Of a stretch of DNA of 64,000 nt, positions 3,600 to 63,520 are shown piece after piece. Where the stretch lies: the IMG/VR virus record IMGVR_UViG_3300045988_179622; one strand, 5' to 3'. A program made the position numbers and the translations under genes. This DNA comes from a virus. The notes under the pieces were generated by a model. That model was not told the DNA's origin. It made no database searches and saw only the letters and a list, made by a program, of their open reading frames with translations. Every line of letters starts with the position of its first letter. The stretch's first letter is position 1.

Positions 3600-4283
3600 C
3601 TAATGTACTATATATTTCTTTGTTACTAATACACAAAGTCCAACACAAAGTGCAAAAAGTACAAAAATTAACATTAGTGTAATCACAATTAAACTTAATA
3701 CGGCTACTGTCTTTCCTGCTCTATTCCAACTATCCTGTACTCGGTTAAATTCCTCAGCATCTCTATACTTGCTTTTGCCGTTTTTCCAAGCCCATACATT
3801 TCCAAACATTCCACATATAATCATCATAAATAAGATTAGTGGTCTATAAAATAAACTTAGCCATATCAACAACGGTATATAACAACTATTACCTAAACCC
3901 CATATCCAAGAAAAACAAAAAGCTCCCCAGTTCCAACCTAAATTTGGTTCATTACCTTTTGCATCTTTTTCTGGGTTCATAATCTTATCAATAAACCTAT
4001 CTATTCTATCTGATAAACTAACTTTCTCTTTGGGTTGTTTCTTTTCCTTTTTAGTTTTAATACTAGTATTGACACCCTCTTTAGGATTAAGTGAACCCGT
4101 TTCTTTTGTTTCTATAGTTGCTGCCTTGGCTTGTGTTACTGTTTCTGTCCTTGCTAGATTTTCAGTATCTATAGTTATATTACTATTACTATTACTATTA
4201 CTATTACTATTACTATTACTGTCAATATTTTTGCAATTAATTGGTTCTTCTGTCATATTAAAGACCCTCCTTTCTATAGTCAA
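3600..4283 (-). CDS. membrane protein with an N-terminal (NS)n low-complexity tract
   Basis: Multiple hydrophobic segments. The NSNSNS tract is coded by an (AATAGT)n microsatellite at 4180-4225. Confidence 0.45.
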   Translation of the reverse strand: MTIERRVFNMTEEPINCKNIDSNSNSNSNSNSNSNITIDTENLARTETVTQAKAATIETKETGSLNPKEGVNTSIKTKKEKKQPKEKVSLSDRIDRFIDKIMNPEKDAKGNEPNLGWNWGAFCFSWIWGLGNSCYIPLLIWLSLFYRPLILFMMIICGMFGNVWAWKNGKSKYRDAEEFNRVQDSWNRAGKTVAVLSLIVITLMLIFVLFALCVGLCVLVTKKYIVH

Positions 4284-5602: not shown

Positions 5603-6108
5603 TTAACCTTTTAAACTGTTTACTTATTTATACTACTTTATGCTACCTTTTTTTCTTTCATATAAAAAGTAAGAAAGAACCTACTTGACAATTTACTTTG
5701 TAGTATCTCTCAATACAACTTAACTGAGAAAAAAATATTATAAAACTTTATACATTATCTATATCAAATAAAAAAGGAGGTGATAAAATCCATTGTCTTT
5801 CGTATTCTTTCTTACGCCCCTTAAGTATCGTATGCCCCCCCCTCTTTTACTACTGTATAAACACAAAAACGAGTGCTAAACAGTTACATTATACTAGAAA
5901 GAATTATTTTTTTAAAAAAAAGAGAGTACCCACTAATTACCTGTGAGCCTCTCTTACTTACTTAGCTTGTTCTTTCTTAACTTATTATTATTTCATCAGC
6001 AATATTTCTAATACTGTTACTATGTAACTTATAAAGATACTTAACTTAATAGAAAGTATTTTCTACTCTATCATACTTTTCTGTATAGATAAGCGTTATC
6101 TACTATAT

Positions 6109-9052: not shown

Positions 9053-9877
9053 TTAATTGAGTGTAGACAGCCTATTTTTTATTATATCTATGTAACTAGG
9101 TTCTTTCTCCACTAATAAACAATTCCTGTTATGTTTCTGACACGCAACCCCCGTTGTCCCACTTCCTGCAAAACAATCTAAAACAAAATCCCCTTCATTA
9201 CTGTGCTTTAGCACTAAATCCTCTATTAATTTTATTGGCTTTTGTGTTTGGTGCTTTGTCCTCTCTTTTCCGTGTACTATAGGTAAATAATATGTGTCAC
9301 AATTTTCTATATTCTTATCTTCTAAACCTAAATCTAAATTTGACATATAAACTTTACTTCCATAAATATCTGAGCTACCATTATTATCATTTTCATTTCC
9401 ATTATCTGGATAGTAATAATTTCCTGTATCATAGCTTGAATTAAATGTTGGCTTACTTTTCTTAACAAAGGTTATAAAGAACTCCTTGCTATTAGTTAAA
9501 TAATTAAGCTTTGAATTTATCGGTACTGGATTTGTTTTATTCCATATCCCTAACCTAGTTTGCTTAAAATGTATTTTCTCTGCACATTCTTTCAATTCTT
9601 GCATTTTCCAAAAATCATAAAATAATATTAATGTGCCTTGTGGCTTTAGTACCCTATAGAACTCTTTTAAAACTATATCTAACCTTATTTGTTCTTTTGT
9701 TGGATTGTCCCAACTTCCAAAGTCTATCGTATGCTTTCCATATTTCTTAATATATTCCTTTTTATCTGGTGCATTGTTTATATACCCACTATTCCTACTA
9801 ATAAAATATGGTGGGTCTGTTAGTATAAGCTCTACACTATTATCTTGTAAACTATTTAAACAGTCTATTGCATCCAT
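9053..9877 (-). CDS. DNA methyltransferase (N6-adenine/N4-cytosine class, DPPY motif)
   Basis: ILTDPPY motif IV and C-terminal CFAGSGTTGVAC motif I (permuted MTase architecture). Confidence 0.75.
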   Translation of the reverse strand: MDAIDCLNSLQDNSVELILTDPPYFISRNSGYINNAPDKKEYIKKYGKHTIDFGSWDNPTKEQIRLDIVLKEFYRVLKPQGTLILFYDFWKMQELKECAEKIHFKQTRLGIWNKTNPVPINSKLNYLTNSKEFFITFVKKSKPTFNSSYDTGNYYYPDNGNENDNNGSSDIYGSKVYMSNLDLGLEDKNIENCDTYYLPIVHGKERTKHQTQKPIKLIEDLVLKHSNEGDFVLDCFAGSGTTGVACQKHNRNCLLVEKEPSYIDIIKNRLSTLN

Positions 9878-20383: not shown

Positions 20384-21226
20384 TTAATATGACACAATCT
20401 TACCTTTTTCTAATTTATAGTATTTATTTTCTTTATATTTAACACCGTCTACATATATTGCTTTTATATCTATAATTTTACCTATTTCATTTTCATCATC
20501 TCTCTCTACTAAAACTAACCAAGAACCTACCTTTCCACAAGCATATGACCTTACCCCATAGGATATAGCTACTGAATCTACATTCTCTGCAAAAGCTAAA
20601 CTTTCTGCCCCAAATGCGAGTGCCATTGAACCTTCTCCCTTAGCAGTAGCAAGAGATGCCTCAGCTAAACTTAATGCAATAGAGTCCTCTTTTTTTACAG
20701 TTGCTATAGAACCTGGGCTATTTGTTATGCTTCTTCCATCTTCCCTTTCTGCACAAGCAATACAACTCTCTCCTAGTGTAACTGCAATACTCTCTGGTTG
20801 TTTTACATTAGAGATAGACCAATCTCCCCCAGCTACAACAACTTTTCCACTAAAGTACACACTTTTATCTATATCATCAGCTTTCACATTTTTATAATCT
20901 GCTGTATCTACTGTAACAGAATATGGTACTCTTTCATCAGCTTCTTCCCTAGTTCTTACAATAATCGGATATTGTGCTACTTCATCCCAACCTAACTTTT
21001 TTAACACACTTATTTTGTTGCATATATAATTTCCTTGTTTATTTCTTTCTATATTACTTAATGGTACAACAAGATATATAGCTTCTGCCACACCCCAAGC
21101 ATAATTAGTCATAATATCTGTTGGATTTGTATACAGCGTAAATCCTTTTGCATACTGTAGTTCACTGTGAGTATAAGTTTCTCCTACACTAACACTAAAT
21201 TCCTTTAAAGCAACATAATATTCCAT
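20384..21226 (-). CDS. hypothetical protein (possibly structural)
   Basis: 280-aa ORF rich in G/A/S/V, suggesting beta structure. Confidence 0.4.
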   Translation of the reverse strand: MEYYVALKEFSVSVGETYTHSELQYAKGFTLYTNPTDIMTNYAWGVAEAIYLVVPLSNIERNKQGNYICNKISVLKKLGWDEVAQYPIIVRTREEADERVPYSVTVDTADYKNVKADDIDKSVYFSGKVVVAGGDWSISNVKQPESIAVTLGESCIACAEREDGRSITNSPGSIATVKKEDSIALSLAEASLATAKGEGSMALAFGAESLAFAENVDSVAISYGVRSYACGKVGSWLVLVERDDENEIGKIIDIKAIYVDGVKYKENKYYKLEKGKIVSY

Positions 21227-21731
21227 TATACATAACTTCCTTTCTTCTATATAAAAACTATTAACTGTATACTAATTTTGTGTGTATTCTAACTCCAGTT
21301 CAATCTTTTGTCAAGTATTTTTAGTAATAAAATAACTATTTAATTTTAATCAAGCATATATTTTATAAGTATTAAATTTATTACTATAACCTATATATAA
21401 ACATACTTTTAAATTTACATATTATTATTTATCTCCATTTCCAATTAAATACCAACATATAAACTTAGCTTTAAACTATTTTCTGATATTTCATTATATT
21501 TCTACCCATTTTTGAATGTTTTATTTTCTATGTAGAATTATACCATTTTCTATATTTCATTGAAATTTGAGCCAAAAAACACATAAAATACACAAAATTA
21601 AAAAGAGCCTACTAAAGACTCTTTCATCTAAAAATTTTTATTTTAATTGTCAACTAACTAACTAACTAACTAACTAAATAAATAAATAAACTCCACCACA
21701 TTTGCTGTATAGTTTATATTTTTCTACTAAT

Positions 21732-22076
21732 TCAATCCCTAAGTTTAATATCGTCCCATTTTGCATTGTCTCCCTTAAACCTCAGCCAGTAGAAATCATC
21801 ATTCTGTAATCCTCTAGTTTTCTTTACTATTCCTAAAGGTGTATAGTGTGTCAATCCTAATGCTTTTAATAAATCTTTTGCATTTGCACGAGTTCTAGGA
21901 AAACATCGACTTTCCAATAAATGGTGTAAACTTTCTGCATTTAAACCAAAGGGGAGAGGATTATCCATAGGGTCTGTTGTATACCTATCACAAGTGATTG
22001 TTCCGTCTGAATAAACTACTATATGTGCTACAGGCTTCTCTTTCCACATATAATCAAACTCTAAATTAACTTCCAA
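21732..22076 (-). CDS. hypothetical protein overlapping the end of the HipA-like gene
   Basis: 114-aa ORF with a 16-bp overlap with the upstream gene, suggesting an operon. Confidence 0.35.
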   Translation of the reverse strand: MEVNLEFDYMWKEKPVAHIVVYSDGTITCDRYTTDPMDNPLPFGLNAESLHHLLESRCFPRTRANAKDLLKALGLTHYTPLGIVKKTRGLQNDDFYWLRFKGDNAKWDDIKLRD

Positions 22077-22948
22077 TACAATCCACCACTTTCTCTATTA
22101 TCGTTATCTCTATTACTGTTATTAGAATTGAAATGGTTATCCCAGTTTTCGCTACATTCCAACTGCCATCTAAGTATATCCTTACATCTCTGTACCTGAT
22201 ACCTTGGATATAAGTCATTTGTATAATTATTTAGTAGTCTGTATACCTTAGTTTTATTTATAATTAGTTTCTTATTTGGGTACTTTTTTCTCAATGCACG
22301 AACTTGCTTGTTACCAAAAGGCATATATCTTACTCTATTTAGAGCATAGACAATATCCTCGTACTTCCCCCAAACTTCTTCTCTAGCAAGAAAACTAAGT
22401 CCATTGTCGAATATAGGGGCTATTGCATAGTTACCATTTGCTTTTCTTATTACACCTAGATTATTTATGTGTCTATCTTCATTTGCTACTAGTTTGTCAA
22501 AGTATAGTGTATTTATTAAATAATCAGTTATATCCAACATATAATGTGTTTTAACAAACTCTATCACATTTTCTATAATTTCTATAGATGGTTGTGTTCT
22601 TCGACTTCTTTCTAAAACTAAGCCATAAGTCTCATATAACCTTGAAATAGAATAAAAACTATCGCCTTTCTCATACATTGTCTGACTACAACAGCCTCTA
22701 TACTTTCCTTGTGAAGTTTCTATCAAACAAGTTTTATATCTTACATGAGGTATTTGGGTGCAATCTAATACCAATGATGCAAATTCTTCTGCCAGTCCTT
22801 CATATCCTTGCATATCAGCCTTTATCCACAAGTTTCCTTTTCGCCACTTTATTTGGTTTCCTTTACTTGTACTTGCTGTTATCCCTGTTATTCCTTTTAC
22901 ATTGACTTTTAACTGTTCCTGACCTTGTCCCTTTTCATTTAGTTGCAC
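22061..22948 (-). CDS. HipA-like Ser/Thr kinase (second paralog)
   Basis: ANEDRHINNLGVI catalytic loop and APIFDNGLSFL motif. Confidence 0.55.
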   Translation of the reverse strand: MQLNEKGQGQEQLKVNVKGITGITASTSKGNQIKWRKGNLWIKADMQGYEGLAEEFASLVLDCTQIPHVRYKTCLIETSQGKYRGCCSQTMYEKGDSFYSISRLYETYGLVLERSRRTQPSIEIIENVIEFVKTHYMLDITDYLINTLYFDKLVANEDRHINNLGVIRKANGNYAIAPIFDNGLSFLAREEVWGKYEDIVYALNRVRYMPFGNKQVRALRKKYPNKKLIINKTKVYRLLNNYTNDLYPRYQVQRCKDILRWQLECSENWDNHFNSNNSNRDNDNRESGGLYWKLI

Positions 22949-23137
22949 CCTAACCTCACCAACCTTTCCTTACAAATAAACAGCTAACTTATAATATACT
23001 TCCTACCTACCTTATTTATTTATCTGTTTATTTATTTGTTTGTTTATTTATTATTTCCTTTTTCTTTTTGGCTCTAATCCAATTTTTTTCGCTTGTCATT
23101 TTATCATATTCCTAATTCAGTTTCAACTTTTATTTGT

Positions 23138-24079
23138 CTATTCCTTTTTTAGCTTGTGAGTTTCTTGCTGTAGCCTTGATACAGCTGTATTATAATACTT
23201 ACTATCTAACTCTATCCCTATAAACTTCCTATTTGTACGCATACACCCTACACCTGTTGTTCCTGAACCCATTGTGAAATCTAAAATTGTATGTCCGTCC
23301 ATTGAAAATAATTGCAGTAAATATTCTATAAGCTCTACTGGTTTCTCTGTTTCGTGATAGGTGTTTTTACCTTTTCTTGCATACGAAAGTATGTTAGACG
23401 GTATTTTATTTGAACTGTTTATTGGACAATTAAACCCTCCTAAACCTGTATTAAGAACACAGTCTGTTAGAGTTCCTCTATACGGTTTAATCGCATAGAT
23501 TATAGGCTCATAATACGGAGCTAAATTCCCTAACCTATAATTCCTGTATAGTTCCTTGCATATTTCTAATTCTTTCTCATTATCCTTTTTTCTTATTCTT
23601 TTTTCCAATACATTTTCTAGCTTCTGTGCTTTCGCATTACATCTATCTTTCTGCCAAATCAAAATATCTTTTATTATAAACCCACTATCTTCTAATGCTG
23701 TGCATACCCTGTGTTGCATACGCCTACTGCTAAATATAAGAATTGGACTTGCTGGCTTAGTTATTCTATACAATTCCCTTGCCCAACTATTACACCAACT
23801 CTCATATTCATACGGAATTTCCTTGTCGGCTTTAGACCAACCATTCAAAGGTTTACCTCGCCTTTTAAAACTCGTCTTTGTTGCTTGATTTAGGCTACTT
23901 CCACCTAAAGCACTATTTTTATTGCTATGTAGAACATCCCAACTAGCATAATCTATCCCATAAGGAATATCTGCTAAAACAACATCTATACTAACATCTT
24001 CTAATGTTTTTAATATTACTCTACAATCGCCTTTATACAGTATATAGTCTTTTTCTCTTTTAGTCTCTATCCTTTCCAA
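23138..24079 (-). CDS. DNA methyltransferase (ParB-less N6A/N4C class)
   Basis: VLADIPYGIDY (DPPY-like) and C-terminal DFTMGSGTTGVGC motif I. Confidence 0.7.
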   Translation of the reverse strand: MERIETKREKDYILYKGDCRVILKTLEDVSIDVVLADIPYGIDYASWDVLHSNKNSALGGSSLNQATKTSFKRRGKPLNGWSKADKEIPYEYESWCNSWARELYRITKPASPILIFSSRRMQHRVCTALEDSGFIIKDILIWQKDRCNAKAQKLENVLEKRIRKKDNEKELEICKELYRNYRLGNLAPYYEPIIYAIKPYRGTLTDCVLNTGLGGFNCPINSSNKIPSNILSYARKGKNTYHETEKPVELIEYLLQLFSMDGHTILDFTMGSGTTGVGCMRTNRKFIGIELDSKYYNTAVSRLQQETHKLKKE

Positions 24080-25494: not shown

Positions 25495-25798
25495 ATAAAC
25501 GCCTCCCTTCTAACAGCTTAAAGTATTCAAAATTAAACTAACAGCCAAAACTATCTGTATATTGTCACTTTCTCCTGTTTCATTACTTAAGTAAAAAATG
25601 TCCCCCTACCGTTTTAGCAGGGAGACTTATATTTGATAGGAGAAAAACTAAATCTAGCTACATACACCTACTACTACTACTACTACTACTACTACACACA
25701 CATAAATATATACATTTTCTCGTGTACTGTTTTTTTGTTACAATGTTCTTTCTGTGTACTAGGTGAATAAATAAATAAATAAATAAATAACCTAAAAA

Positions 25799-26695
25799 TC
25801 AATAGTTTACTATTAACACTTCCTTGTCCTCACTCCTATCTTTCTTATGATAATTACACCTTGTGTGTTGGCTTCCTAGCTGATAAACGGTGTACTTTTC
25901 TTTCCATTTATCCAGTAACCTATTTTCATACTTCAAATTATTACTTAGTGCAAATTTAACACCTTTCTTATCTAACTCGTCTAACTTGCTTAATAATATT
26001 TTCTCATATTCTTCTCCCCAACCGTCTTTTCCAGTTCTGTATTCATTATATGTAGCTACAGAATTTAAGTACGGTGGGTCTGCATAAACAAAATCTTTAT
26101 CAGTTAAATCCTCCAAAAGTTTAAGTTTATCAAATTGTTCGTTCATAAACACGCAATTAATACTGTGTAATCTATCGTTGAATAAACTAAACCTTTCCCT
26201 TAGTTTCGAATTGAATGAGCTTCTTTCCAATCCAAACGGCATATTGTAATCACCATTTTTATTAAACCTTATTTGATGGTTGAATGAATAACAAATTAAT
26301 ACATACAACATTAACGGGTGCTTTTCTTTTTCATTGTTATACACTTCCCTTAAACTTAAATATCCCTCTCTATTTTGCTGAGTTAAGCTATATTCTTTAA
26401 TTAAGCTATCTATATATTCAAGGGAACTTTCTGTAGGTGTGTTCTTTAAATATTGTAATAGTTCAACTACCTGTGTTAAAACATCATTATATATAATCTT
26501 TTCAGCTATTACATTGGCACCTACATTGAACCCCCCCCCGAAAAAATCCACAAATATCCCTATATTACTAGGAAACTTAGACATTATCTGAGGTAATATT
26601 TTATACTTTCCTCCTGTATAATTTAATGGGCTTTTTACATATTTGTTCACACCCTTGTTTTGCTTTGAGTTTATTTCTTCTGTATTTTTTGACAT
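25799..26695 (-). CDS. Dam-family (D12 class) N6-adenine DNA methyltransferase containing a G9 homopolymer
   Basis: NYTGGKYKILPQI, FVDFFGGGFNVG (motif I) and YADPPYLNS (motif IV). The GGG GGG GGG codons plus the preceding C make a C9 run at 26531-26539. Confidence 0.75.
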   Translation of the reverse strand: MSKNTEEINSKQNKGVNKYVKSPLNYTGGKYKILPQIMSKFPSNIGIFVDFFGGGFNVGANVIAEKIIYNDVLTQVVELLQYLKNTPTESSLEYIDSLIKEYSLTQQNREGYLSLREVYNNEKEKHPLMLYVLICYSFNHQIRFNKNGDYNMPFGLERSSFNSKLRERFSLFNDRLHSINCVFMNEQFDKLKLLEDLTDKDFVYADPPYLNSVATYNEYRTGKDGWGEEYEKILLSKLDELDKKGVKFALSNNLKYENRLLDKWKEKYTVYQLGSQHTRCNYHKKDRSEDKEVLIVNY

Positions 26696-27169
26696 TTAAT
26701 CTTTTTTTTGTTGTTGGGCATATTATGTATCTACATACAAGTAAGTAAATAAGTTTTATTGGACTGATAACAAACTTAATATACAAAATCTAAACTACTT
26801 ATCTTATTTTGACCCTTAATTAACTCCCTTTTTAATATTTCAGTCCCACTTATATACATCTATATGCCCTTGCTGGTAACTTCTGCTCTCTTTACCTATT
26901 TATTTATTAATTAGTTGATTGATTATTTATTTATTTAACTCTGTTCGGCAGTTCGTTCTAATAAACTTAATTCCTAATACTTCTTTATTTTCTTGTCCCT
27001 ATTTCTATTATTTCGGTATACTTCTTAATACACCCAGTTTTCTAACTAACTTACTTACCTTTATTTTTTAGGCAATTTAAAAGGGAGACTAAAAAAGCCT
27101 CCCTATCTATATCTGTACAGTTATATTTATTTATGTATTTTCTATTTCTACTTAGTTTATATACAAATC

Positions 27170-29560
27170 TTATAAGTATTCAGCCATATAAACATCTAAA
27201 TCATATGGTGTTATATCACCATCCACATCAAAGATAATATCAGCTTCCTCTTTATCATCTACCATTAATCCTCTTGCTCTTGTGTTTAAAGCAATTAAAT
27301 CGTATAAAGTAGGCTTTTGCATATTTACAACACTATAACATACGGCTGCTACAGTATCTAAATTACTTTCTACATTATTTCCACCAACTCTAGTATAACA
27401 ACTACCTAAGGATACACCCATATCGCCCCAAATTATTTCTCTGTTTACACAGTCAAAAATAACTGGAATACTGATACAACCATTTGTGGTTAAATCCATT
27501 TTCTGTTCAACTGTTTTTGGCTCATAAATTTCTCCTGACTTTACACTTTTTCTATTCATCCAGCCGAAACTAGCGTGTGGTAGTTCAGATAAAATCTGCT
27601 GTGTATAGCTGTACACCTGATAAACAACATATCTTCCTCCATACTTTACTACAGAGTCAATATCAATATCAATGAACTCACTTACACCTTTTCCATTTAC
27701 ATTTCCACCGTCTGTAATATCGCCTGAGTGACAAGCTCTATATTTCTTAGAGCGTAAGTTTGTGTATGAAATATGTTCCATATAATTCCAGTTTTCATCA
27801 AAGATAGCACCTGATAAGTCTAAGTCTACTCTACTCTTTTTATCATTTGTCCACCAAATAAACCCTCTTAATACTTTTGTGCTTGCTGGAATAGGTACTC
27901 TTGAACCTCTTACCATAGTCTTTAAAGTTTTGTTGGCACTTCTCTGGCTGAAAGGTACAATATAATTCTTAAACTCTTTTGACACATAAACATTACCTAA
28001 CCAGTCTCTCTTGCTATAATTTGTTACTAAAGCGTTTTCACAAATTCTTACTATAGACTTACAAGCCTTTTCTGAGATAGCTTCTAGCTTATTTTCTACA
28101 TTATAGCTATTTGCTAGTCTGCCCTTAGGGAAGAAAACCCTATACTTAGTGTCTTTAACTTCATTTGAAGCCTTATCTTCCTTTTCGTTATTGTTACCAG
28201 GATTGCTATCACTAGTTTCAACTTCAACTTCAACCTCAGCTGATTGATTTCTGTGTTTGAAATGCTCCCTTACCTGTAATAAAACAGGTGTAGCTACTTC
28301 TACTGCTACTTCTCTGAAAGCATTGACAATTTCAAATTCATTTTCCTTATAAAGTCTTAATAAATAATCTAATTTTCTTGCTAGTTCACCTGGACGCTTC
28401 TTTAATAAATTGATTGCTGCGAGTTCCTTTGTTGCAAGTAACTGCTCTACCTTAGATGCGTAAGTTTTTATCTCTTTAGGACAATTTCTTAACTTTCTAT
28501 AAGCTTCATTTACTGTAGGATATGAATTTTTATATTCAGCAGGGTGTAACTTTTCTCCTACTCTAATCCACTTACCCTTGTGGCGTAACATATCTTCTTC
28601 AATACCTTTACCACAACTTTCAAGCAACTCCATAATTAATCTGCGTTCCTTACGGTTGAAGTTTCTATACTTAGTTGTCCCAGCTAAACTTACATCACCA
28701 CCTGACATCTCTGTAATAAGTCTAAGGACATCTGTTGCTGTCTTAATGTATCTTTTTAATAGAAAATTAAGTTCTCGTTCTGATAAATAATTACATTCTG
28801 TTATTAAGATTTTACATATCAAAGCTACATTTTCTTTTAATAAAATTTCTTTAGGTAGCATACAGAATACATCTGCGTTTGTTAGTAACCACTCTAAGTC
28901 TTTCTTATCTGTAGACGATAGAGAAGTTTTTGAATTACATAAATTTAAACCTATCTCTAATAAATCAAAATAATTTCCTACTTCAATTACCTTTAATTTA
29001 TTTGTTACTTCTTCTTCTAAAGGCAATCTCTCTTTCTTTTCTGATTCTGGATAATATGTGCCTAATGAGAGGTAATGTAAGATTGCATTAAGATATAATT
29101 CTACTTCTTCTGCTTCCATTACTTCTTCTGGAAAGTTTGGATAAAGAGGCTTGTAAACTACATTTGCACCTACAAGTTTCTTTAATACAGACACTACTTC
29201 TAAATACATTTTCTTTAGTTCGTCTACATTCTTTTTCTTTAAAATTTCAATAGCTTCTTCTGAAAATGTATAACCTAAACTCCCAATATTCTTTAATAGA
29301 GTTGCTACATAAACTTCTTCTTTAGTAACAGCACTTTCAGGTGTTTTTGCTTCTATTACTGCCTTTATTTCTGCTACTCCATCCTTTTCTTCTGCTTCTG
29401 CTTTCAAACCACTTTCATTCTCTAACCCTAACAAAAGTTTATTTCGTCTTCTTAACAAGATTTCAAGAGCCTTTGGCTCTGCTAAACTTCCTGGTTTAAA
29501 TATTGTCTTTCTTTGGTTGTTTGTTGCCTTTTCTTTCATAGTATCTGCATTAATTCCCAT
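27170..29560 (-). CDS. large protein (796 aa) with a C-terminal TerD-like domain
   Basis: VDLDLSGAIFDENWNYMEHISYTNL and SGDITDGGNVNGKGVSEFIDIDID resemble TerD VDLDASAFLLD and GDNxTGEGDGDDE. Confidence 0.4.
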   Translation of the reverse strand: MGINADTMKEKATNNQRKTIFKPGSLAEPKALEILLRRRNKLLLGLENESGLKAEAEEKDGVAEIKAVIEAKTPESAVTKEEVYVATLLKNIGSLGYTFSEEAIEILKKKNVDELKKMYLEVVSVLKKLVGANVVYKPLYPNFPEEVMEAEEVELYLNAILHYLSLGTYYPESEKKERLPLEEEVTNKLKVIEVGNYFDLLEIGLNLCNSKTSLSSTDKKDLEWLLTNADVFCMLPKEILLKENVALICKILITECNYLSERELNFLLKRYIKTATDVLRLITEMSGGDVSLAGTTKYRNFNRKERRLIMELLESCGKGIEEDMLRHKGKWIRVGEKLHPAEYKNSYPTVNEAYRKLRNCPKEIKTYASKVEQLLATKELAAINLLKKRPGELARKLDYLLRLYKENEFEIVNAFREVAVEVATPVLLQVREHFKHRNQSAEVEVEVETSDSNPGNNNEKEDKASNEVKDTKYRVFFPKGRLANSYNVENKLEAISEKACKSIVRICENALVTNYSKRDWLGNVYVSKEFKNYIVPFSQRSANKTLKTMVRGSRVPIPASTKVLRGFIWWTNDKKSRVDLDLSGAIFDENWNYMEHISYTNLRSKKYRACHSGDITDGGNVNGKGVSEFIDIDIDSVVKYGGRYVVYQVYSYTQQILSELPHASFGWMNRKSVKSGEIYEPKTVEQKMDLTTNGCISIPVIFDCVNREIIWGDMGVSLGSCYTRVGGNNVESNLDTVAAVCYSVVNMQKPTLYDLIALNTRARGLMVDDKEEADIIFDVDGDITPYDLDVYMAEYL

Positions 29561-55354: not shown

Positions 55355-56869
55355 TTACTTACCATAATTTATACCATATCCTCGTATATTTTCTCCTGTA
55401 TATGTTTCAGGAAGTTCATCTTCGGTAGGTGGTTCAGATATAAAATCAAATTGTGACTTTGTAACACCTTCTAATGCCATTCTTTCTTGCAATTCTTGTG
55501 TTAAGCAACCTACTCTCTTGTGGTAGCCTTTTATATCTTTTACAAAGCCATTCTCGTCAAACTCTGTTCCAGTTACAATAAACTTGTATAAGTCGTTTAT
55601 ATCAGCTGCATTTGGGTTATCATCCTTTACACCCACAACTTCACTTATCTGTATAATCTTTCTTGTACCATCCCTCATTATCTTCTGTACGATTACTAAG
55701 TTACACAGACTTGTTATATTATATAAAGCTAGGTCTGAGGGTTCATTCCCACTCTCAGCTAAGTATGCTGTCAAAAATCGTTTTATTGCACCTTCACTAC
55801 TTCCTGCGTGGAAGGTACAGTTAATTGGGTGTCCTGCCTGCATTATCTGCATCCCTAACTTAAATTCTATATTAGTACGCAATTCACCAAAACATACAAA
55901 TGTAGGCGATAATCTTAAAATATGTGTCATAATATTCTGCATTGTTGGGTCTTTAGGTGTTGGGTTTTCTACTTCCTTCGCCTCCAAATGAAGTACATCG
56001 TTATACACACGACCTGTAGCTGTCTTAAATCTAAGGTCGATTTCAGATGGGTTCTGTGCTAATACAGTTCTTGTATCTGCTGGCATTTCCTGTAATATTG
56101 CATTATTCATTGTTGTCTTACCTGATGATGTAGGTCCAACTGTCATCCAAGTTAATCCACCTCTTGGGCATAAGGACAATAATCGTGCCATATTATCGCT
56201 TAATGTACCAAACTTAACAATATCTCCTAAACCCATCTTGTCCTTTTTAAACTTTCTAAGTACAAAGGAATTATATCTAGGTGCATTAGGCTCTTGTGGG
56301 TCTGGTGACATAGCTGTAAAATGTACGGCTGCAATTCTATAACCCTCTACTGTTCGTGCATTAACCAAAGCATCTTTCGGAGTTAGTTTTACATCACCCA
56401 ACAGCTTACGCATTATGATTTCTTGCTGTTCAGGAGAGTCAAAAGAAACAATATTCCCCTCTGTGTCAGTTAAATCTTTAACCCTACCTTTTATTTCAAC
56501 TTTTATCTCTTTACCATTTGCTCGAATTTCATATACATCTGGATTTTCCATAGCTTTTGAGAGAATACCATAGTCTGTAATATCCTCTACTAATTTATCT
56601 ATTACTTTACCTACTTCCATTCTATTCCCAGAAGTATAGTTTTCTATGCTTACGCTTTGATTTTGATTTACATAATCTGTAATTAGCTTTTTAATAGCAT
56701 CTTTTTTGGCTTCTACTTCTAAATAACGATAATCATTACTATTATTCTTTATAAACTCTCTACATCTAGTAGTGTAAGCTTCCATTGTCATACTCTGTGT
56801 TGCTTCTTGCATTGACTTAGAATCTGCACCTCTAGCTACCTGTAGTCCTATCAACCTTTCTTGGTTCAT
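55355..56869 (-). CDS. CpaF/TadA-type secretion ATPase (VirB11/GspE family)
   Basis: Walker A GPTSSGKTT, CFGELR Asp/Walker B box and His box. AGGAGG ribosome-binding site. Confidence 0.8.
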   Translation of the reverse strand: MNQERLIGLQVARGADSKSMQEATQSMTMEAYTTRCREFIKNNSNDYRYLEVEAKKDAIKKLITDYVNQNQSVSIENYTSGNRMEVGKVIDKLVEDITDYGILSKAMENPDVYEIRANGKEIKVEIKGRVKDLTDTEGNIVSFDSPEQQEIIMRKLLGDVKLTPKDALVNARTVEGYRIAAVHFTAMSPDPQEPNAPRYNSFVLRKFKKDKMGLGDIVKFGTLSDNMARLLSLCPRGGLTWMTVGPTSSGKTTMNNAILQEMPADTRTVLAQNPSEIDLRFKTATGRVYNDVLHLEAKEVENPTPKDPTMQNIMTHILRLSPTFVCFGELRTNIEFKLGMQIMQAGHPINCTFHAGSSEGAIKRFLTAYLAESGNEPSDLALYNITSLCNLVIVQKIMRDGTRKIIQISEVVGVKDDNPNAADINDLYKFIVTGTEFDENGFVKDIKGYHKRVGCLTQELQERMALEGVTKSQFDFISEPPTEDELPETYTGENIRGYGINYGK

Positions 56870-56924
56870 TTATCTTATTTTCCTCCTCTCTTTTCGCTTT
56901 TAATTAATATTCTAATTACTTTAT

Positions 56925-57983
56925 CTATTTATCTTTAGTTTCTAATTCTTCCAATTTATCTACATCAACCTTTTTCTTCTTTTCCTTTTTAACGGATTTT
57001 TCCTTACCTAAATCTTTAACAATTCTTTCATATCCACCTAATCTCAATATTTCATCTAAAATGTTACCTAAATTAGTACAATAAGTTTTAGACTGAGGTG
57101 TGAAATTTGTACCTTTCTCTAAGTAAATCTCACTATTTAAACCACTTTCGATTATTTTCGTATCAAAAGGCAATACACCTAATAAAGGTAATTCTAGTGT
57201 GTTAAATATCCTTTTCGGATAAAATACATCTGTTTTTTTATTTAATATAACTTTAAATCTCTTTGGCGTTACGCCTTGGGCTGCTAAACTTCTACTTAAT
57301 GTATCAAAGTTAGCCACACAGTTAATCCCTTCGTCCCAAACTGTATAATAAGCATCTGAGTGATATAGTGCTGTACCTACAATATCAAAGGATAAATCCA
57401 AAGGACAGTCTAGCATAATAACATCAAATTGATATTTTATCTTTCGAAATGCTCTCTCTAAATTCTCAGACGCATTTTTAGAGTCTAAGTCCAAATAGTT
57501 ATATAACACTCTATCGTGTGATGCTAGTATAGACAGATTTCCTTTATTCACAATACTTTCACCTATTTCATTCTTTCCTTGTAAAAACGAAACTAAGTCT
57601 GGTTGGTTTTCTGTATATCTAATATCAAACAAATAAGGTATTGTCGGAAACATAATATTTAAGTCTATGAGTAGAACTGTTAAACCTTGCTTAGATGCTA
57701 AATAAGCTAGATTAGAGACTACTGTACTTGTCCCTACTCCTCCAGCACTTCCAATAAAACCTAAGATGTTATCTACTAACTTTAACTTTGTATCTGTGCC
57801 TTTTCCTGATAACACTTCCAAAGAAGTTTTTAATAAATCATCGGCTCTTTGGCTAAATGTCTTATTACTATTTTCGCTATCTTTATTGTTGTTATTGTTA
57901 TTATTACCACTAAATAAACGCATTTCTTTTTTCCTCCTTCTCTCTTTCTTTCTGTTATTTACTGCCAATACTACTACTGCCAA
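56925..57983 (-). CDS. CpaE/TadZ-like MinD/ParA-family ATPase
   Basis: GFIGSAGGVGTSTVVSNLA deviant Walker A. AGGAGG ribosome-binding site. Confidence 0.65.
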   Translation of the reverse strand: MAVVVLAVNNRKKERRRKKEMRLFSGNNNNNNNKDSENSNKTFSQRADDLLKTSLEVLSGKGTDTKLKLVDNILGFIGSAGGVGTSTVVSNLAYLASKQGLTVLLIDLNIMFPTIPYLFDIRYTENQPDLVSFLQGKNEIGESIVNKGNLSILASHDRVLYNYLDLDSKNASENLERAFRKIKYQFDVIMLDCPLDLSFDIVGTALYHSDAYYTVWDEGINCVANFDTLSRSLAAQGVTPKRFKVILNKKTDVFYPKRIFNTLELPLLGVLPFDTKIIESGLNSEIYLEKGTNFTPQSKTYCTNLGNILDEILRLGGYERIVKDLGKEKSVKKEKKKKVDVDKLEELETKDK

Positions 57984-61783: not shown

Positions 61784-63520
61784 TCAGTTCTTTGATTTTC
61801 CCCATATATATTCATCTGGTAAACTCTCTGTAACTAACTCTAATATTTCTTCGGCATTTAACTCTGTAATGGTTTTATTATCTTTGACTTTTGTGTCATT
61901 GTCCTTATATGGTTTTGCTAACCTACCACCACCTGCTCCTAAACTATCTAAATTTAATGTGTTTACACATATACTTTCATCTATGTTTCCAATTAATTTA
62001 TTGTACTTTTTTGCTAATGCCTTTGCATTTTGTATATCTTTGGTATTCGCTCCTGTAATATAATACACACCTAGTTTTACTGTATATGATGTACTTTCTA
62101 CGGCTATATAAACATTAGGTGCATACTTTCCTACTATACAAATAACATGACTACTCCAATTTGCTATGTCTCCTGTTTGTAAATCTGTTAAACTGACTGG
62201 TTCTAACCCTCCATTACTTACAAACCCACTTGCTGAACTGTCATATATTCTTGAAGTATCTATTTGATTGTATAACCAACTACAGAAACCACTACAATCT
62301 AAACCTTCTAACTGATGTATTGATATTCCATTCTTTACTAATACCTCATTGTCACATACATCTGACATATTCATAACACCCTTCCAATAAACTGAGTTTC
62401 CAAATATATCTTTTCTCGCTTTTCTATAATCTGTCGCTGTTCTTACAACCTCGCCTCTATACGCACAATTTCCTGTACTTCCGTGTATAGGACACCAAGT
62501 ATTTCCACTTGGACTTATATTACTGGCTTCATTGTCTTTATATTGCTCGTTAAATACAAACCATATAGGACTATATCCGTGGATAGAATGTATTCCGTGT
62601 CCTCCACCCCATACATACCTTACTTTACCCACTAAACCTATTCCTGCTTTCATCATATTGTATCTACTGGTTTCTCCATATACATATGTCGTCTTTTTTA
62701 GTGGTGCATCTTTTATTGCATACTCACTAGCTGACTGCAATAACTTCTCATCTAAACTTAATGCCTGTGCTAGTATTTCTGTATTTTCTATTCCGTACTT
62801 CTTAAATATTGGTATAAACTTCTCATTTATTGTATAGTTTCCTTCCTCCGATATATCTACTACACACTCGTCTTTCTTTTTTGTATTCAATAAATCTGTA
62901 TATAACTGTGCTATCTTTGTTATATCTACATCGTAGTCATATAAACTTTCGTATGCTTCATAAAAGATTATCCTTTCTCTATCTGCTGTATATATTAATT
63001 CTAAATCTTTTCTGTTTTTTGACCTTTTTTCTATTGTTTCTTTTAAATGCTTACTTAATGTCCATAAACAATCAGGTAAATAGTATTCTGAACCCCTTAA
63101 CTGTGCATTTACATTTGTCACAAATGGGCATATTTCAACTTTTGTTGTGTTAAGTAACTTATTCTCAGTCTTTTCAGTATATATATCTGCATCTCTATAT
63201 AAGTAACTTGCATTAAGCCTTATTGCTATTGCTCTTATATAATCTTCACTTAGCCCTAAGTTCTTACTAATTTCAGATATTAAACTTTCTAATCCTGTTG
63301 TATAAATTAGCCTTTCTCCCTCTCCTGAAACATAATAAACCTTACCTTTATCGTTGTTGTTGTTGTTAGTGTTAGTGCTATTGTCCACATTAAAGCTGTA
63401 TTGTCCTTTTTCTTCACTCTCTAAATCTAGTTCTGAGCTTGTCGCACCATATATTACTGTGGAAATTGGGTTGCTTAATATCCCTATAAACAGTAGCACC
63501 GTCATAGCCTTTTTAAACAC
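61784..63520 (-). CDS. secreted cell-wall hydrolase with a C-terminal NlpC/P60-like peptidase domain (lysin)
   Basis: Signal peptide. C-terminal DCSGFCSWLY (catalytic Cys) and SSHVICIVG (His). Confidence 0.6.
   Translation of the reverse strand: MFKKAMTVLLFIGILSNPISTVIYGATSSELDLESEEKGQYSFNVDNSTNTNNNNNDKGKVYYVSGEGERLIYTTGLESLISEISKNLGLSEDYIRAIAIRLNASYLYRDADIYTEKTENKLLNTTKVEICPFVTNVNAQLRGSEYYLPDCLWTLSKHLKETIEKRSKNRKDLELIYTADRERIIFYEAYESLYDYDVDITKIAQLYTDLLNTKKKDECVVDISEEGNYTINEKFIPIFKKYGIENTEILAQALSLDEKLLQSASEYAIKDAPLKKTTYVYGETSRYNMMKAGIGLVGKVRYVWGGGHGIHSIHGYSPIWFVFNEQYKDNEASNISPSGNTWCPIHGSTGNCAYRGEVVRTATDYRKARKDIFGNSVYWKGVMNMSDVCDNEVLVKNGISIHQLEGLDCSGFCSWLYNQIDTSRIYDSSASGFVSNGGLEPVSLTDLQTGDIANWSSHVICIVGKYAPNVYIAVESTSYTVKLGVYYITGANTKDIQNAKALAKKYNKLIGNIDESICVNTLNLDSLGAGGGRLAKPYKDNDTKVKDNKTITELNAEEILELVTESLPDEYIWGKSKN

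Follow-up and report, generated by a model that had tools for sequence, protein, structure and literature searches.

Introduction

In bacterial phasevarions, such as those built on the Type III mod genes of Haemophilus, Neisseria and Helicobacter, a simple repeat within an open reading frame (ORF) switches DNA methylation by frameshift. Phasevarion genes are chromosomal, belong to Type III or Type I systems, usually have a partner res gene and control a bacterial regulon. Here we describe a locus to be set beside them, found in the IMG/VR virus record IMGVR_UViG_3300045988_179622, a stretch of 64,000 nucleotides that was analysed as a whole (hereafter, the window). It is a run of nine G's inside a gene for a Dam-like N6-adenine DNA methyltransferase. 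Unlike the mod genes with their regulon, the gene is an orphan of the D12/Dam-like class and is carried by a mobile element. The first-pass annotation of the window, made from its letters alone, had likened the run to the switches of phasevarions. In the strict sense that term is not supported, as the gene is neither a Type III mod nor a Type I hsd gene, and searches of its neighbours with Pfam, NCBIfam and PADLOC found no res or hsd gene.

Its nearest known counterpart is the agt gene of phage T2, which contains an A9 run whose +/-1 frameshifts switch glucosylation off and on; the OFF state escapes TgvAB, the ON state escapes McrA/BC, and reversion rates have been measured (Gomez, Barrick & Waters, bioRxiv 10.1101/2025.10.21.683753). 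Both cases are coding homopolymers in a DNA-modification gene of a phage or, here, of a probable phage. However, the T2 tract is an A9 run in a glucosyltransferase gene of a cultured coliphage, whereas the present one is a poly-G run in an adenine methyltransferase gene of an uncultured element, seen through natural allelic variation only. In Campylobacter Fletchervirus phages, coding poly-G runs of 7-11 give rise to ON and OFF subpopulations (Sorensen et al. 2021 Cell Rep, as summarized in a paper citing it). According to that summary, those tracts lie in receptor-binding protein genes and alter host range, whereas the present tract is part of the motif with which a methyltransferase binds its cofactor. 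In Bordetella phage BPP-1, too, a poly-G run in a methylase gene was noted and, by the account given in 10.1101/2025.10.21.683753, was not studied further (Liu et al. 2004). Not until 2025 were phage loci described as contingency loci, in laboratory T-even phages, and the earlier poly-G cases were the receptor-binding proteins of Campylobacter phages.

Among solved structures, those of phage T4 Dam (1yfj and 1q0s) match the enzyme best; the alignment covers nearly the full length, with motifs I and IV conserved. Motif I of T4 Dam is FCGGLS, without GGG or a homopolymer, whereas here it is FFGGGF, and T4 DNA has GATC sites while the window has none. On these likenesses, the locus appears comparable to phage T2 agt, the Campylobacter-phage poly-G tracts and the bacterial phase-variable methyltransferases, and would join their class. 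We put at roughly 60% the probability that the G9 tract is a hypermutable simple-sequence contingency locus inside a functional Dam-like methyltransferase coding sequence.

A poly-G tract in motif I of a Dam-like gene

A scan of all homopolymers identified C9 on the plus strand as the longest G/C run of the window, which has a GC content of 31.4%. It lies at exactly the position reported in the first-pass annotation (26531-26539), and the plus strand around it reads cctacattgaaCCCCCCCCCgaaaaaatcc. On the gene strand, the reading is GAT TTT TTC GGG GGG GGG TTC AAT, encoding D F F G G G F N. The features of the locus and of the rest of the window are collected in Table 1.

The earlier description of the gene as Dam-like, with FFGGGF encoded by ttc-ggg-ggg-ggg, agrees with the profile and structure matches. 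The product matched PF02086 (D12 class N6-adenine methyltransferase) with an E-value of 7e-34 (118 bits against a cut-off of 22), TIGR00571 'dam' with 145.9 bits (cut-off 114.85), and the T4 Dam structures with an E-value of 3e-43 over residues 24-297. We aligned the product with 20 homologues of 56-62% identity (21 sequences). The order of motifs from the N- to the C-terminus is YTGGK (26-30), FFGGGF (51-56) and DPPY (206-209), all invariant; around the tract, F52, G53, G54, G55, F56, N57, V58 and G59 showed no variation. Thus, on all sequence criteria tested, the product belongs to the Dam/D12 family.

From base composition alone, homopolymer counts lead one to expect about 0.04 G/C runs of 9 or more. 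By resampling synonymous codons (14.5k codons), the probability of any coding G-run of 9 or more was 0.023 (expected count 0.03). The share of GGG among the glycine codons in the 40 large ORFs of the window is 14.5%. The same resampling predicts about 3 coding runs of G6-G8, of which none was observed; coding G5 runs numbered 5 (11.6 expected) and coding A-runs of 8 or more numbered 2 (7.3 expected). Apart from the G9 tract, no coding G-run in the window reaches a length of 6. Hence, the coding DNA of the window avoids slippery runs, and the G9 tract is the lone exception. Hypermutability, with slippage as the presumed process, would best explain the tract.

The tract is specific to this lineage, since no G-run longer than 5 was found at motif I in a set of 80 loci of the Dam family in GTDB genomes, at 39-58% identity. 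Elsewhere in the window, C6-C8 runs at 1567, 5835, 13298, 14646, 18371, 31409 and 31924 are outside ORFs of 120 aa or more, and all are copies of one repeated intergenic motif. On the gene strand this motif of about 30 nt reads GA-GGGGGG(GG)-CATACGATACTTAAGGGGTGT, with a G-run of 4-8 depending on the copy, and several of the copies precede tRNA genes by 270-600 nt. We take it to be loosely similar to the promoters of single-subunit phage RNA polymerases (ATACGA...GGG), and it may be an element-specific promoter candidate.

The sigma-70-like promoter match just upstream of the methyltransferase start codon is weak, and matches of such quality are at least as common in shuffled sequence as here. 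Given this match and the terminator-like hairpins on both sides, the methyltransferase gene is probably transcribed alone, as a monocistronic unit, and a frameshift should therefore not be polar.

Table 1. Features of the window discussed in the text (positions are those of the window; a dot in the strand column means that no strand applies).
Feature	Position	Strand	Evidence or remark
Dam-like (D12 class, alpha group) N6-adenine DNA methyltransferase gene, 298 aa, ON (in-frame) allele	25799..26695	-	PF02086, TIGR00571 and T4 Dam matches
Motif I (S-adenosylmethionine (AdoMet)-binding FxGxG loop), FFGGGF, residues 51-56	26528..26545	-	family alignment
G9 homopolymer (C9 on the plus strand)	26531..26539	-	three GGG codons for G53-G55 of motif I
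Motif IV, catalytic DPPY, residues 206-209	26069..26080	-	D206, P207, P208 and Y209 invariant in the alignment
Weak sigma-70-like promoter match just upstream of the start codon	26722..26749	-	consensus match, 9/12 positions
Terminator-like hairpin between the 796-aa gene and the methyltransferase gene	27082..27104	-	
Terminator-like hairpin downstream of the methyltransferase gene	25600..25626	-	
(CTA/TAG)9 intergenic microsatellite downstream of the gene	25668..25695	.	one unit fewer in L013 and L018; contigs without single-nucleotide differences
(AATA)6 intergenic microsatellite beside the stop codon	25766..25790	.	one unit more in L017; contigs without single-nucleotide differences
Second methyltransferase of the cluster, N6_N4 class, 313 aa	23138..24079	-	PF01555, E 1e-33
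796-aa upstream neighbour	27170-29560	-	MXAN_6230/SCO0854 RING family, E 2e-125, below the curated cut-off; phrog_33734
Four methyltransferase-like genes	9053-9877, 23138-24079, 25799-26695, 32472-33092		
Copies of the intergenic motif	505, 1557-1572, 5825-5842, 13287-13303, 14636-14652, 30688, 31399-31414, 31914-31929	-	
NrdD anaerobic ribonucleotide reductase, 1264 aa	34294-38088	-	PHROG blocks 1-406, 784-959 and 1120-1261
RAGATH-18 small RNA	19993-20067	-	Rfam, 51.3 bits (gathering threshold 44.9)

Tract-length alleles in related assemblies

The first-pass annotation had proposed the tract as a candidate phase-variable switch, to be checked by looking for length variants in related genomes. 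This comparison was positive: among public assemblies of the same element, the tract has at least 11 alleles, some in frame and others not, on several haplotypes. They comprise the uninterrupted alleles G7, G8, G9 and G10 and interrupted alleles of the form GnAGGG (also written GnAG3), where n is 5, 7, 8, 9, 10, 11 or 12. Alleles were read directly in the DNA of at least 25 contigs from independent samples, with IMG, ENA and Logan as assembly sources. Four samplings were used: a look-up of the exact protein, scans for the flanking patterns with a free gap between them, look-ups anchored on neighbouring genes, and the members of a 90% protein cluster.

In the exact-protein look-up (98% cluster), all eight contigs carried G9, as expected because such a look-up selects intact genes. 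The flank-pattern scan found G7 in the IMG/VR contig 3300029546_000088 and GGGGGAGGG (G5AGGG) in ERZ773224; ERZ838827 (G7) is identical in sequence to the former contig, and the pair was counted as one observation. The neighbour-anchored look-ups involve no selection on the state of the methyltransferase. The one anchored on the 148-aa neighbour yielded G9, G7 (L014) and G8 (L016), and the one anchored on the helix-turn-helix (HTH) neighbour yielded G9, G5AG3 (L020, L021 and L029), G8AG3 (L026-L028), G9AG3 (L023) and G12AG3 (L022, a 260-kb scaffold). By contig, the G7 alleles read in DNA are those of L001/L012 and L014, and the G5AG3 alleles those of L011, L020, L021 and L029. The samples behind the contigs include SRR31850548 (G8), SRR18491254 and SRR14493406 (G9), ERZ28618979 (G7), ERZ28616250 (G12AG3), ERZ28617733 (G9AG3) and ERZ28594197 (G8AG3). 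The G8AG3 allele encodes a protein of 299 aa with four glycines.

Further alleles were decoded from protein ends among the 90% cluster members listed. The ending FFGGGSM (57 aa) decodes as G8 and occurs on two backgrounds (10 and 6 contigs), while FFGGGVQCRCQCNS (64 aa) decodes as G10, FFGGEGSM (58 aa) as G7AG3 and FFGGGEGSM (59 aa) as G10AG3, each in 4 contigs. A 300-aa form with five glycines, in 5 contigs, is consistent with G11AG3. All out-of-frame alleles stop at 57-65 aa, which bears out the earlier expectation that a change of frame truncates the enzyme at motif I. As the catalytic DPPY is encoded downstream of the tract, it is missing from every one of them.

Independent and recurrent length changes

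We left the tract out and built a neighbour-joining tree from coding sites in the 4 kb around it. The tree contains three clades: A (G9 and one G7), B, to which the window belongs (G9, one G8 and one G7), and C, with interrupted tracts. Within clade C, C1 is uniformly G5AG3, and C2 contains G8AG3, G9AG3 and G12AG3 on nearly identical backgrounds. Together, the tree and the cluster fragments require at least six independent length changes over the three clades. The G8 contig L016 shows no single-nucleotide polymorphism (SNP) relative to the window across 6.3 kb, and within the gene the G7 contig L014 differs from the window by the tract alone.

As indel controls, we used the partial 796-aa gene and the Dam-like, 148-aa, HTH and N6_N4 genes. 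In the well-aligned genes, the coding indels besides the tract are a 13-bp deletion (L017) and an in-frame change of a hexamer repeat in the 796-aa gene. The former, a repeat deletion in the second methyltransferase gene, is the sole other frameshifting coding indel. The remaining indels in the aligned region are microsatellite changes or scaffold N-gaps; the split genes of L027 and L028, considered as extra frameshifts, were rejected because they reflect such N-gaps. Six contigs without SNPs differ solely in the G tract, the 13-bp repeat and the intergenic (CTA)9 and (AATA)6 microsatellites, indicating that the assemblies are accurate outside these sites. The element is very rich in intergenic microsatellites with tri- to hexanucleotide units, such as (AACT)9.5 at 21652, (ACTA)9.8 at 39375, (TATTAC)7 at 4178 and (TGT)18 at 32255.

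Homopolymers are error-prone and several contigs have low coverage (about 5.7x for L012), so one might ascribe the length differences to sequencing or assembly errors at a difficult G homopolymer whose real length is invariant. We give this explanation scarcely any credence. The same alleles recur in several independent samples processed by three pipelines (Logan, ENA and JGI), they are clade-specific, and their steps include -2, +3, +4 and +7, beyond the +/-1 range. Moreover, the same contigs have no coding indels at A/T or other homopolymers.

Selection on the gene and the frequency of OFF alleles

The ratio of nonsynonymous to synonymous polymorphism (pN/pS) of the Dam-like gene between clades is 0.15-0.20, indicating that the protein is maintained by purifying selection. 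When the tract of each OFF (out-of-frame) allele is reset to G9, all of them give intact ORFs with 0-1 extra amino-acid changes. The synonymous divergence of the gene between clades is 9-13%, as compared with about 0 in the adjacent 148-aa, HTH and N6_N4 genes (L002, L011 and L026). In one clade the amino-acid differences are concentrated in the N-terminal half, in another in the C-terminal half; the gene may thus have undergone mosaic recombination or carry old alleles.

The two neighbour-anchored look-ups contained about 4 OFF contigs out of 23 (ON, about 19) and about 4 out of 24 (ON, about 20), and the cluster listing contained 82 ON and 28 OFF contigs (from 15 of its 79 members). These contig counts are rough and are not independent population samples, as the look-ups collapse similar places and the listing covers 15/79 members. 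If frame were neutral, one third of the contigs would be expected to be ON; ON is favoured, well above this expectation. By these rough counts, some 15-25% of contigs were assembled in the OFF (majority) state, a share far beyond what a balance between mutation and selection against a harmful allele could sustain.

With about one fifth of the contigs frameshifted, and with the neighbouring methyltransferase gene itself frameshifted (L017) or absent (L001/L012) in some lineages, the gene may seem to be in the course of being lost, the frameshifted copies being young pseudogenes on their way to deletion. This is very unlikely in our estimation: OFF alleles sit at the tips in all three clades while ON persists over 1-2% divergence, no OFF allele carries a second lesion, and the protein is under purifying selection.

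Absence of GATC and the likely target

In EcoDam, residues Y119, R124 and P134 belong to the recognition hairpin and read the ATC part of GATC. The product has F138, R143 and P153 at these places, aligned with F111, R116 and P126 of T4 Dam and invariant in the family alignment, and K11 of T4 Dam also has a conserved equivalent. The contact of EcoDam R124 enforces a C:G pair at position 4 of GATC (PMC4417163). Thus, the T4 Dam-like recognition residues suggest specificity for GATC. On the other hand, the top PADLOC match (296 bits) is to positions 350-641 of a 646-residue model of two-domain Type II methyltransferases, compared with a weaker 146 bits for the T4-Dam-like model. The C-terminal domain of the two-domain M.FokI methylates CATCC (PMC3985630). 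As a lead from the length of the PADLOC model alone, the enzyme could be FokI-like in specificity. GGATG/CATCC occurs 47 times in the window, against 55 expected.

The window contains no GATC, where 107 are expected from a Markov model and 185 from composition, and related loci contain none across 217 kb. Also absent from the window are ACGT, CCGG, CGCG, GCGC and GGCC, as well as GAATTC, GATATC, ATGCAT, GTTAAC and TCTAGA. CATG occurs 6 times (138 expected), CACTG/CAGTG 4 times (49 expected) and GAATC 20 times (70 expected). This extreme avoidance of short palindromes coexists in the window with four methyltransferase-like genes. The first-pass annotation had supposed that the switch could toggle methylation or immunity to restriction systems; the immunity idea is complicated by the lack of GATC in the window and in the 217 kb of related loci. 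The puzzle is why purifying selection maintains a Dam-like enzyme on an element that lacks GATC and nearly all 4-bp palindromes.

Two ways out can be offered as leads: the enzyme may have another specificity, or it may act on host DNA. In the latter case it would mark the host chromosome and not the DNA of the element, from which GATC and most other short palindromes have been purged. The ON state would mark host DNA, for example as a substrate for a methylation-dependent nuclease of the host or with altered regulation or repair as the outcome, and the OFF state would avoid triggering a methylation-sensing defence. We hold this to be improbable. If true, the poly-G tract would be a population-level bet-hedging switch for a host-directed epigenetic weapon, carried by an element with contigs of up to 0.84-0.9 Mb.

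A contingency locus or an incidental hotspot

The tract lies within an ORF, its nine G's exceed the length of about 7-8 at which G/C runs slip, it is polymorphic in and out of frame, and its changes have recurred independently. In the contingency-locus reading, slipped-strand mispairing at replication would add or remove G's, reversibly and at a high rate; the lack of secondary lesions in OFF alleles lends this indirect support. Frame-keeping lengths (G9, G5AGGG and possibly the four- and five-glycine alleles G8AGGG and G11AGGG) would give the full, presumably active enzyme. The remaining lengths would stop within or just after motif I and before DPPY, giving a null allele. A population would therefore always hold methylating and non-methylating variants. 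Selection would act mostly for ON, and OFF would be favoured or tolerated in some settings, becoming the majority in some samples. As the most plausible cause, the methyl mark on the target sequence of the enzyme would protect against classical restriction and be a liability against methylation-dependent restriction, depending on the host.

Several points weigh against this reading, beginning with the roughness of the contig counts noted above. The first-pass annotation had named two outcomes that would speak against a switch. A tract of invariant length is not what was found, as the length varies between related assemblies. However, an interrupted tract with a conserved protein does occur, namely GGGGGAGGG, in one abundant clade. 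Its G5AGGG protein form (P0123) is found in the most contigs (37) among the cluster members listed, and the tract length is the same in all four DNA contigs with this allele. The interrupted allele is thus apparently stable and a locked-ON state does well, so that hypermutability itself may not be selected. The four- and five-glycine in-frame alleles add residues to an invariant motif and may be inactive. If the enzyme is specific for GATC, it would have no site in the DNA seen, which would undercut a rationale of self-protection.

The same observations could be read as an incidental mutational hotspot created by three GGG codons, with the OFF alleles as neutral or mildly deleterious noise and no selected bet-hedging. 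With no GATC in the window or the related loci, the enzyme may have little to do on the DNA of the element itself, and the stable G5AGGG is common. The element is rich in microsatellites, others of which vary between contigs without SNPs, and the region is accessory, as L001 and L012 carry unrelated sequence where the N6_N4 gene would be. Yet the pN/pS of 0.15-0.2 shows that the protein is maintained, OFF alleles never carry secondary lesions, and the proportion of contigs with OFF as the consensus, about 15-25%, exceeds what mutation-selection balance against a deleterious allele would give. As runs are depleted in the other coding DNA, such a tract should also have been purged, and in clade C2 the 5' run has come back to 7-12 after the G-to-A interruption. 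We therefore consider the incidental hotspot unlikely, though it deserves to be taken seriously, and prefer the contingency locus.

Gene neighbourhood and nature of the element

The neighbours of the methyltransferase gene encode an SCO0854-family RING protein, an orphan 148-aa protein and an HTH protein, and the N6_N4 methylase gene lies 1.7 kb from the D12 gene. The N6_N4 gene contains a 13-bp tandem duplication at 23580-23605, GAAAAAAGGATAA twice, encoding EKRIRKKDN; two copies keep the frame. In L017, which otherwise shows no SNPs, one copy has been lost and the gene is frameshifted. In L001 and L012 the gene is absent, and unrelated sequence is found in its place. A DpnII-type restriction-modification cassette was considered and rejected, because the two genes between the methylases and the flanking genes have no endonuclease match in Pfam, NCBIfam or PADLOC.

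The region downstream of the HTH and N6_N4 genes (about 20000-23000 of the window) is a variable island, and L022, L026 and L001 differ in its gene content. In L026 it contains an AAA_15/AAA_23 ATPase and DUF6661, and a 295-aa island gene of the window matches the PADLOC candidate defence family PDC-M03A. The 148-aa neighbour forms one 90% cluster only in 5.8 billion proteins, and the cluster representative is on a 1.2-kb contig without the methyltransferase.

All large ORFs of the window are on the minus strand, and the GC skew is about -0.3 throughout. The window encodes NrdD, a fragment of a family A DNA polymerase, a RecJ-like exonuclease, an FtsH-like ATPase, a TnpB-like transposase and four tRNAs. 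The separate PHROG blocks of NrdD suggest two inserted elements such as inteins or homing endonucleases. The 625-aa ATPase was rejected as a replicon marker, since FtsH-like proteases are found everywhere and are uninformative. Alternative genetic codes with TGA or TAG as sense codons gave no meaningful gain in ORF coverage, and code 11 was kept.

The element is probably a huge phage from human-associated samples. This label rests on its membership in IMG/VR, on PHROG matches to replication and metabolism genes, and on the homologues of the 796-aa protein in the jumbo phages XacN1, Xoo-sp13, SCTP-2 and Weasels2 and in a 485-kb uncultured phage. One relative is an IMG/VR viral contig. PHROG and Pfam scans detected no phage structural hallmark (capsid or terminase) in the window. 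Genes for a T2SSE-family secretion ATPase and an adjacent ParA/AAA_31-like ATPase, along with a weak NlpC/P60 match, were found on the minus strand (55355-57983 and 61784-63520). This set is also typical of pilus or conjugation modules, so that a giant plasmid-like element is conceivable. The flank-pattern scan did not find the element in GTDB species representatives, and 24-29 kb of the window gave no megablast match among GenBank phages, indicating that the element has no cultured close relative. The contigs bearing the gene reach 260 kb among those read, and 844,575 and 899,507 bp in database tables (P0001, P0123 and P0122). Provided that these big contigs are neither chimeras nor copies integrated in a host, the element greatly exceeds typical jumbo phages in size.

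Implications

The locus is unusual in that the tract lies within the invariant GGG of motif I, in the breadth of its natural allelic ladder, in having a second methyltransferase 1.7 kb away with a repeat-mediated frameshift variant of its own, and in that a Dam-like gene resides on DNA wholly without GATC. As gene callers split the gene in about one fifth of the assemblies, annotation under-counts it unless calling is made aware of the tract. The allelic ladder spans the metagenomes of many people, and the idea of a switch can be tested with existing read archives and methylome data. The locus provides evidence, from uncultured human-associated populations, that a large mobile element keeps one of its DNA-modification genes slippery.

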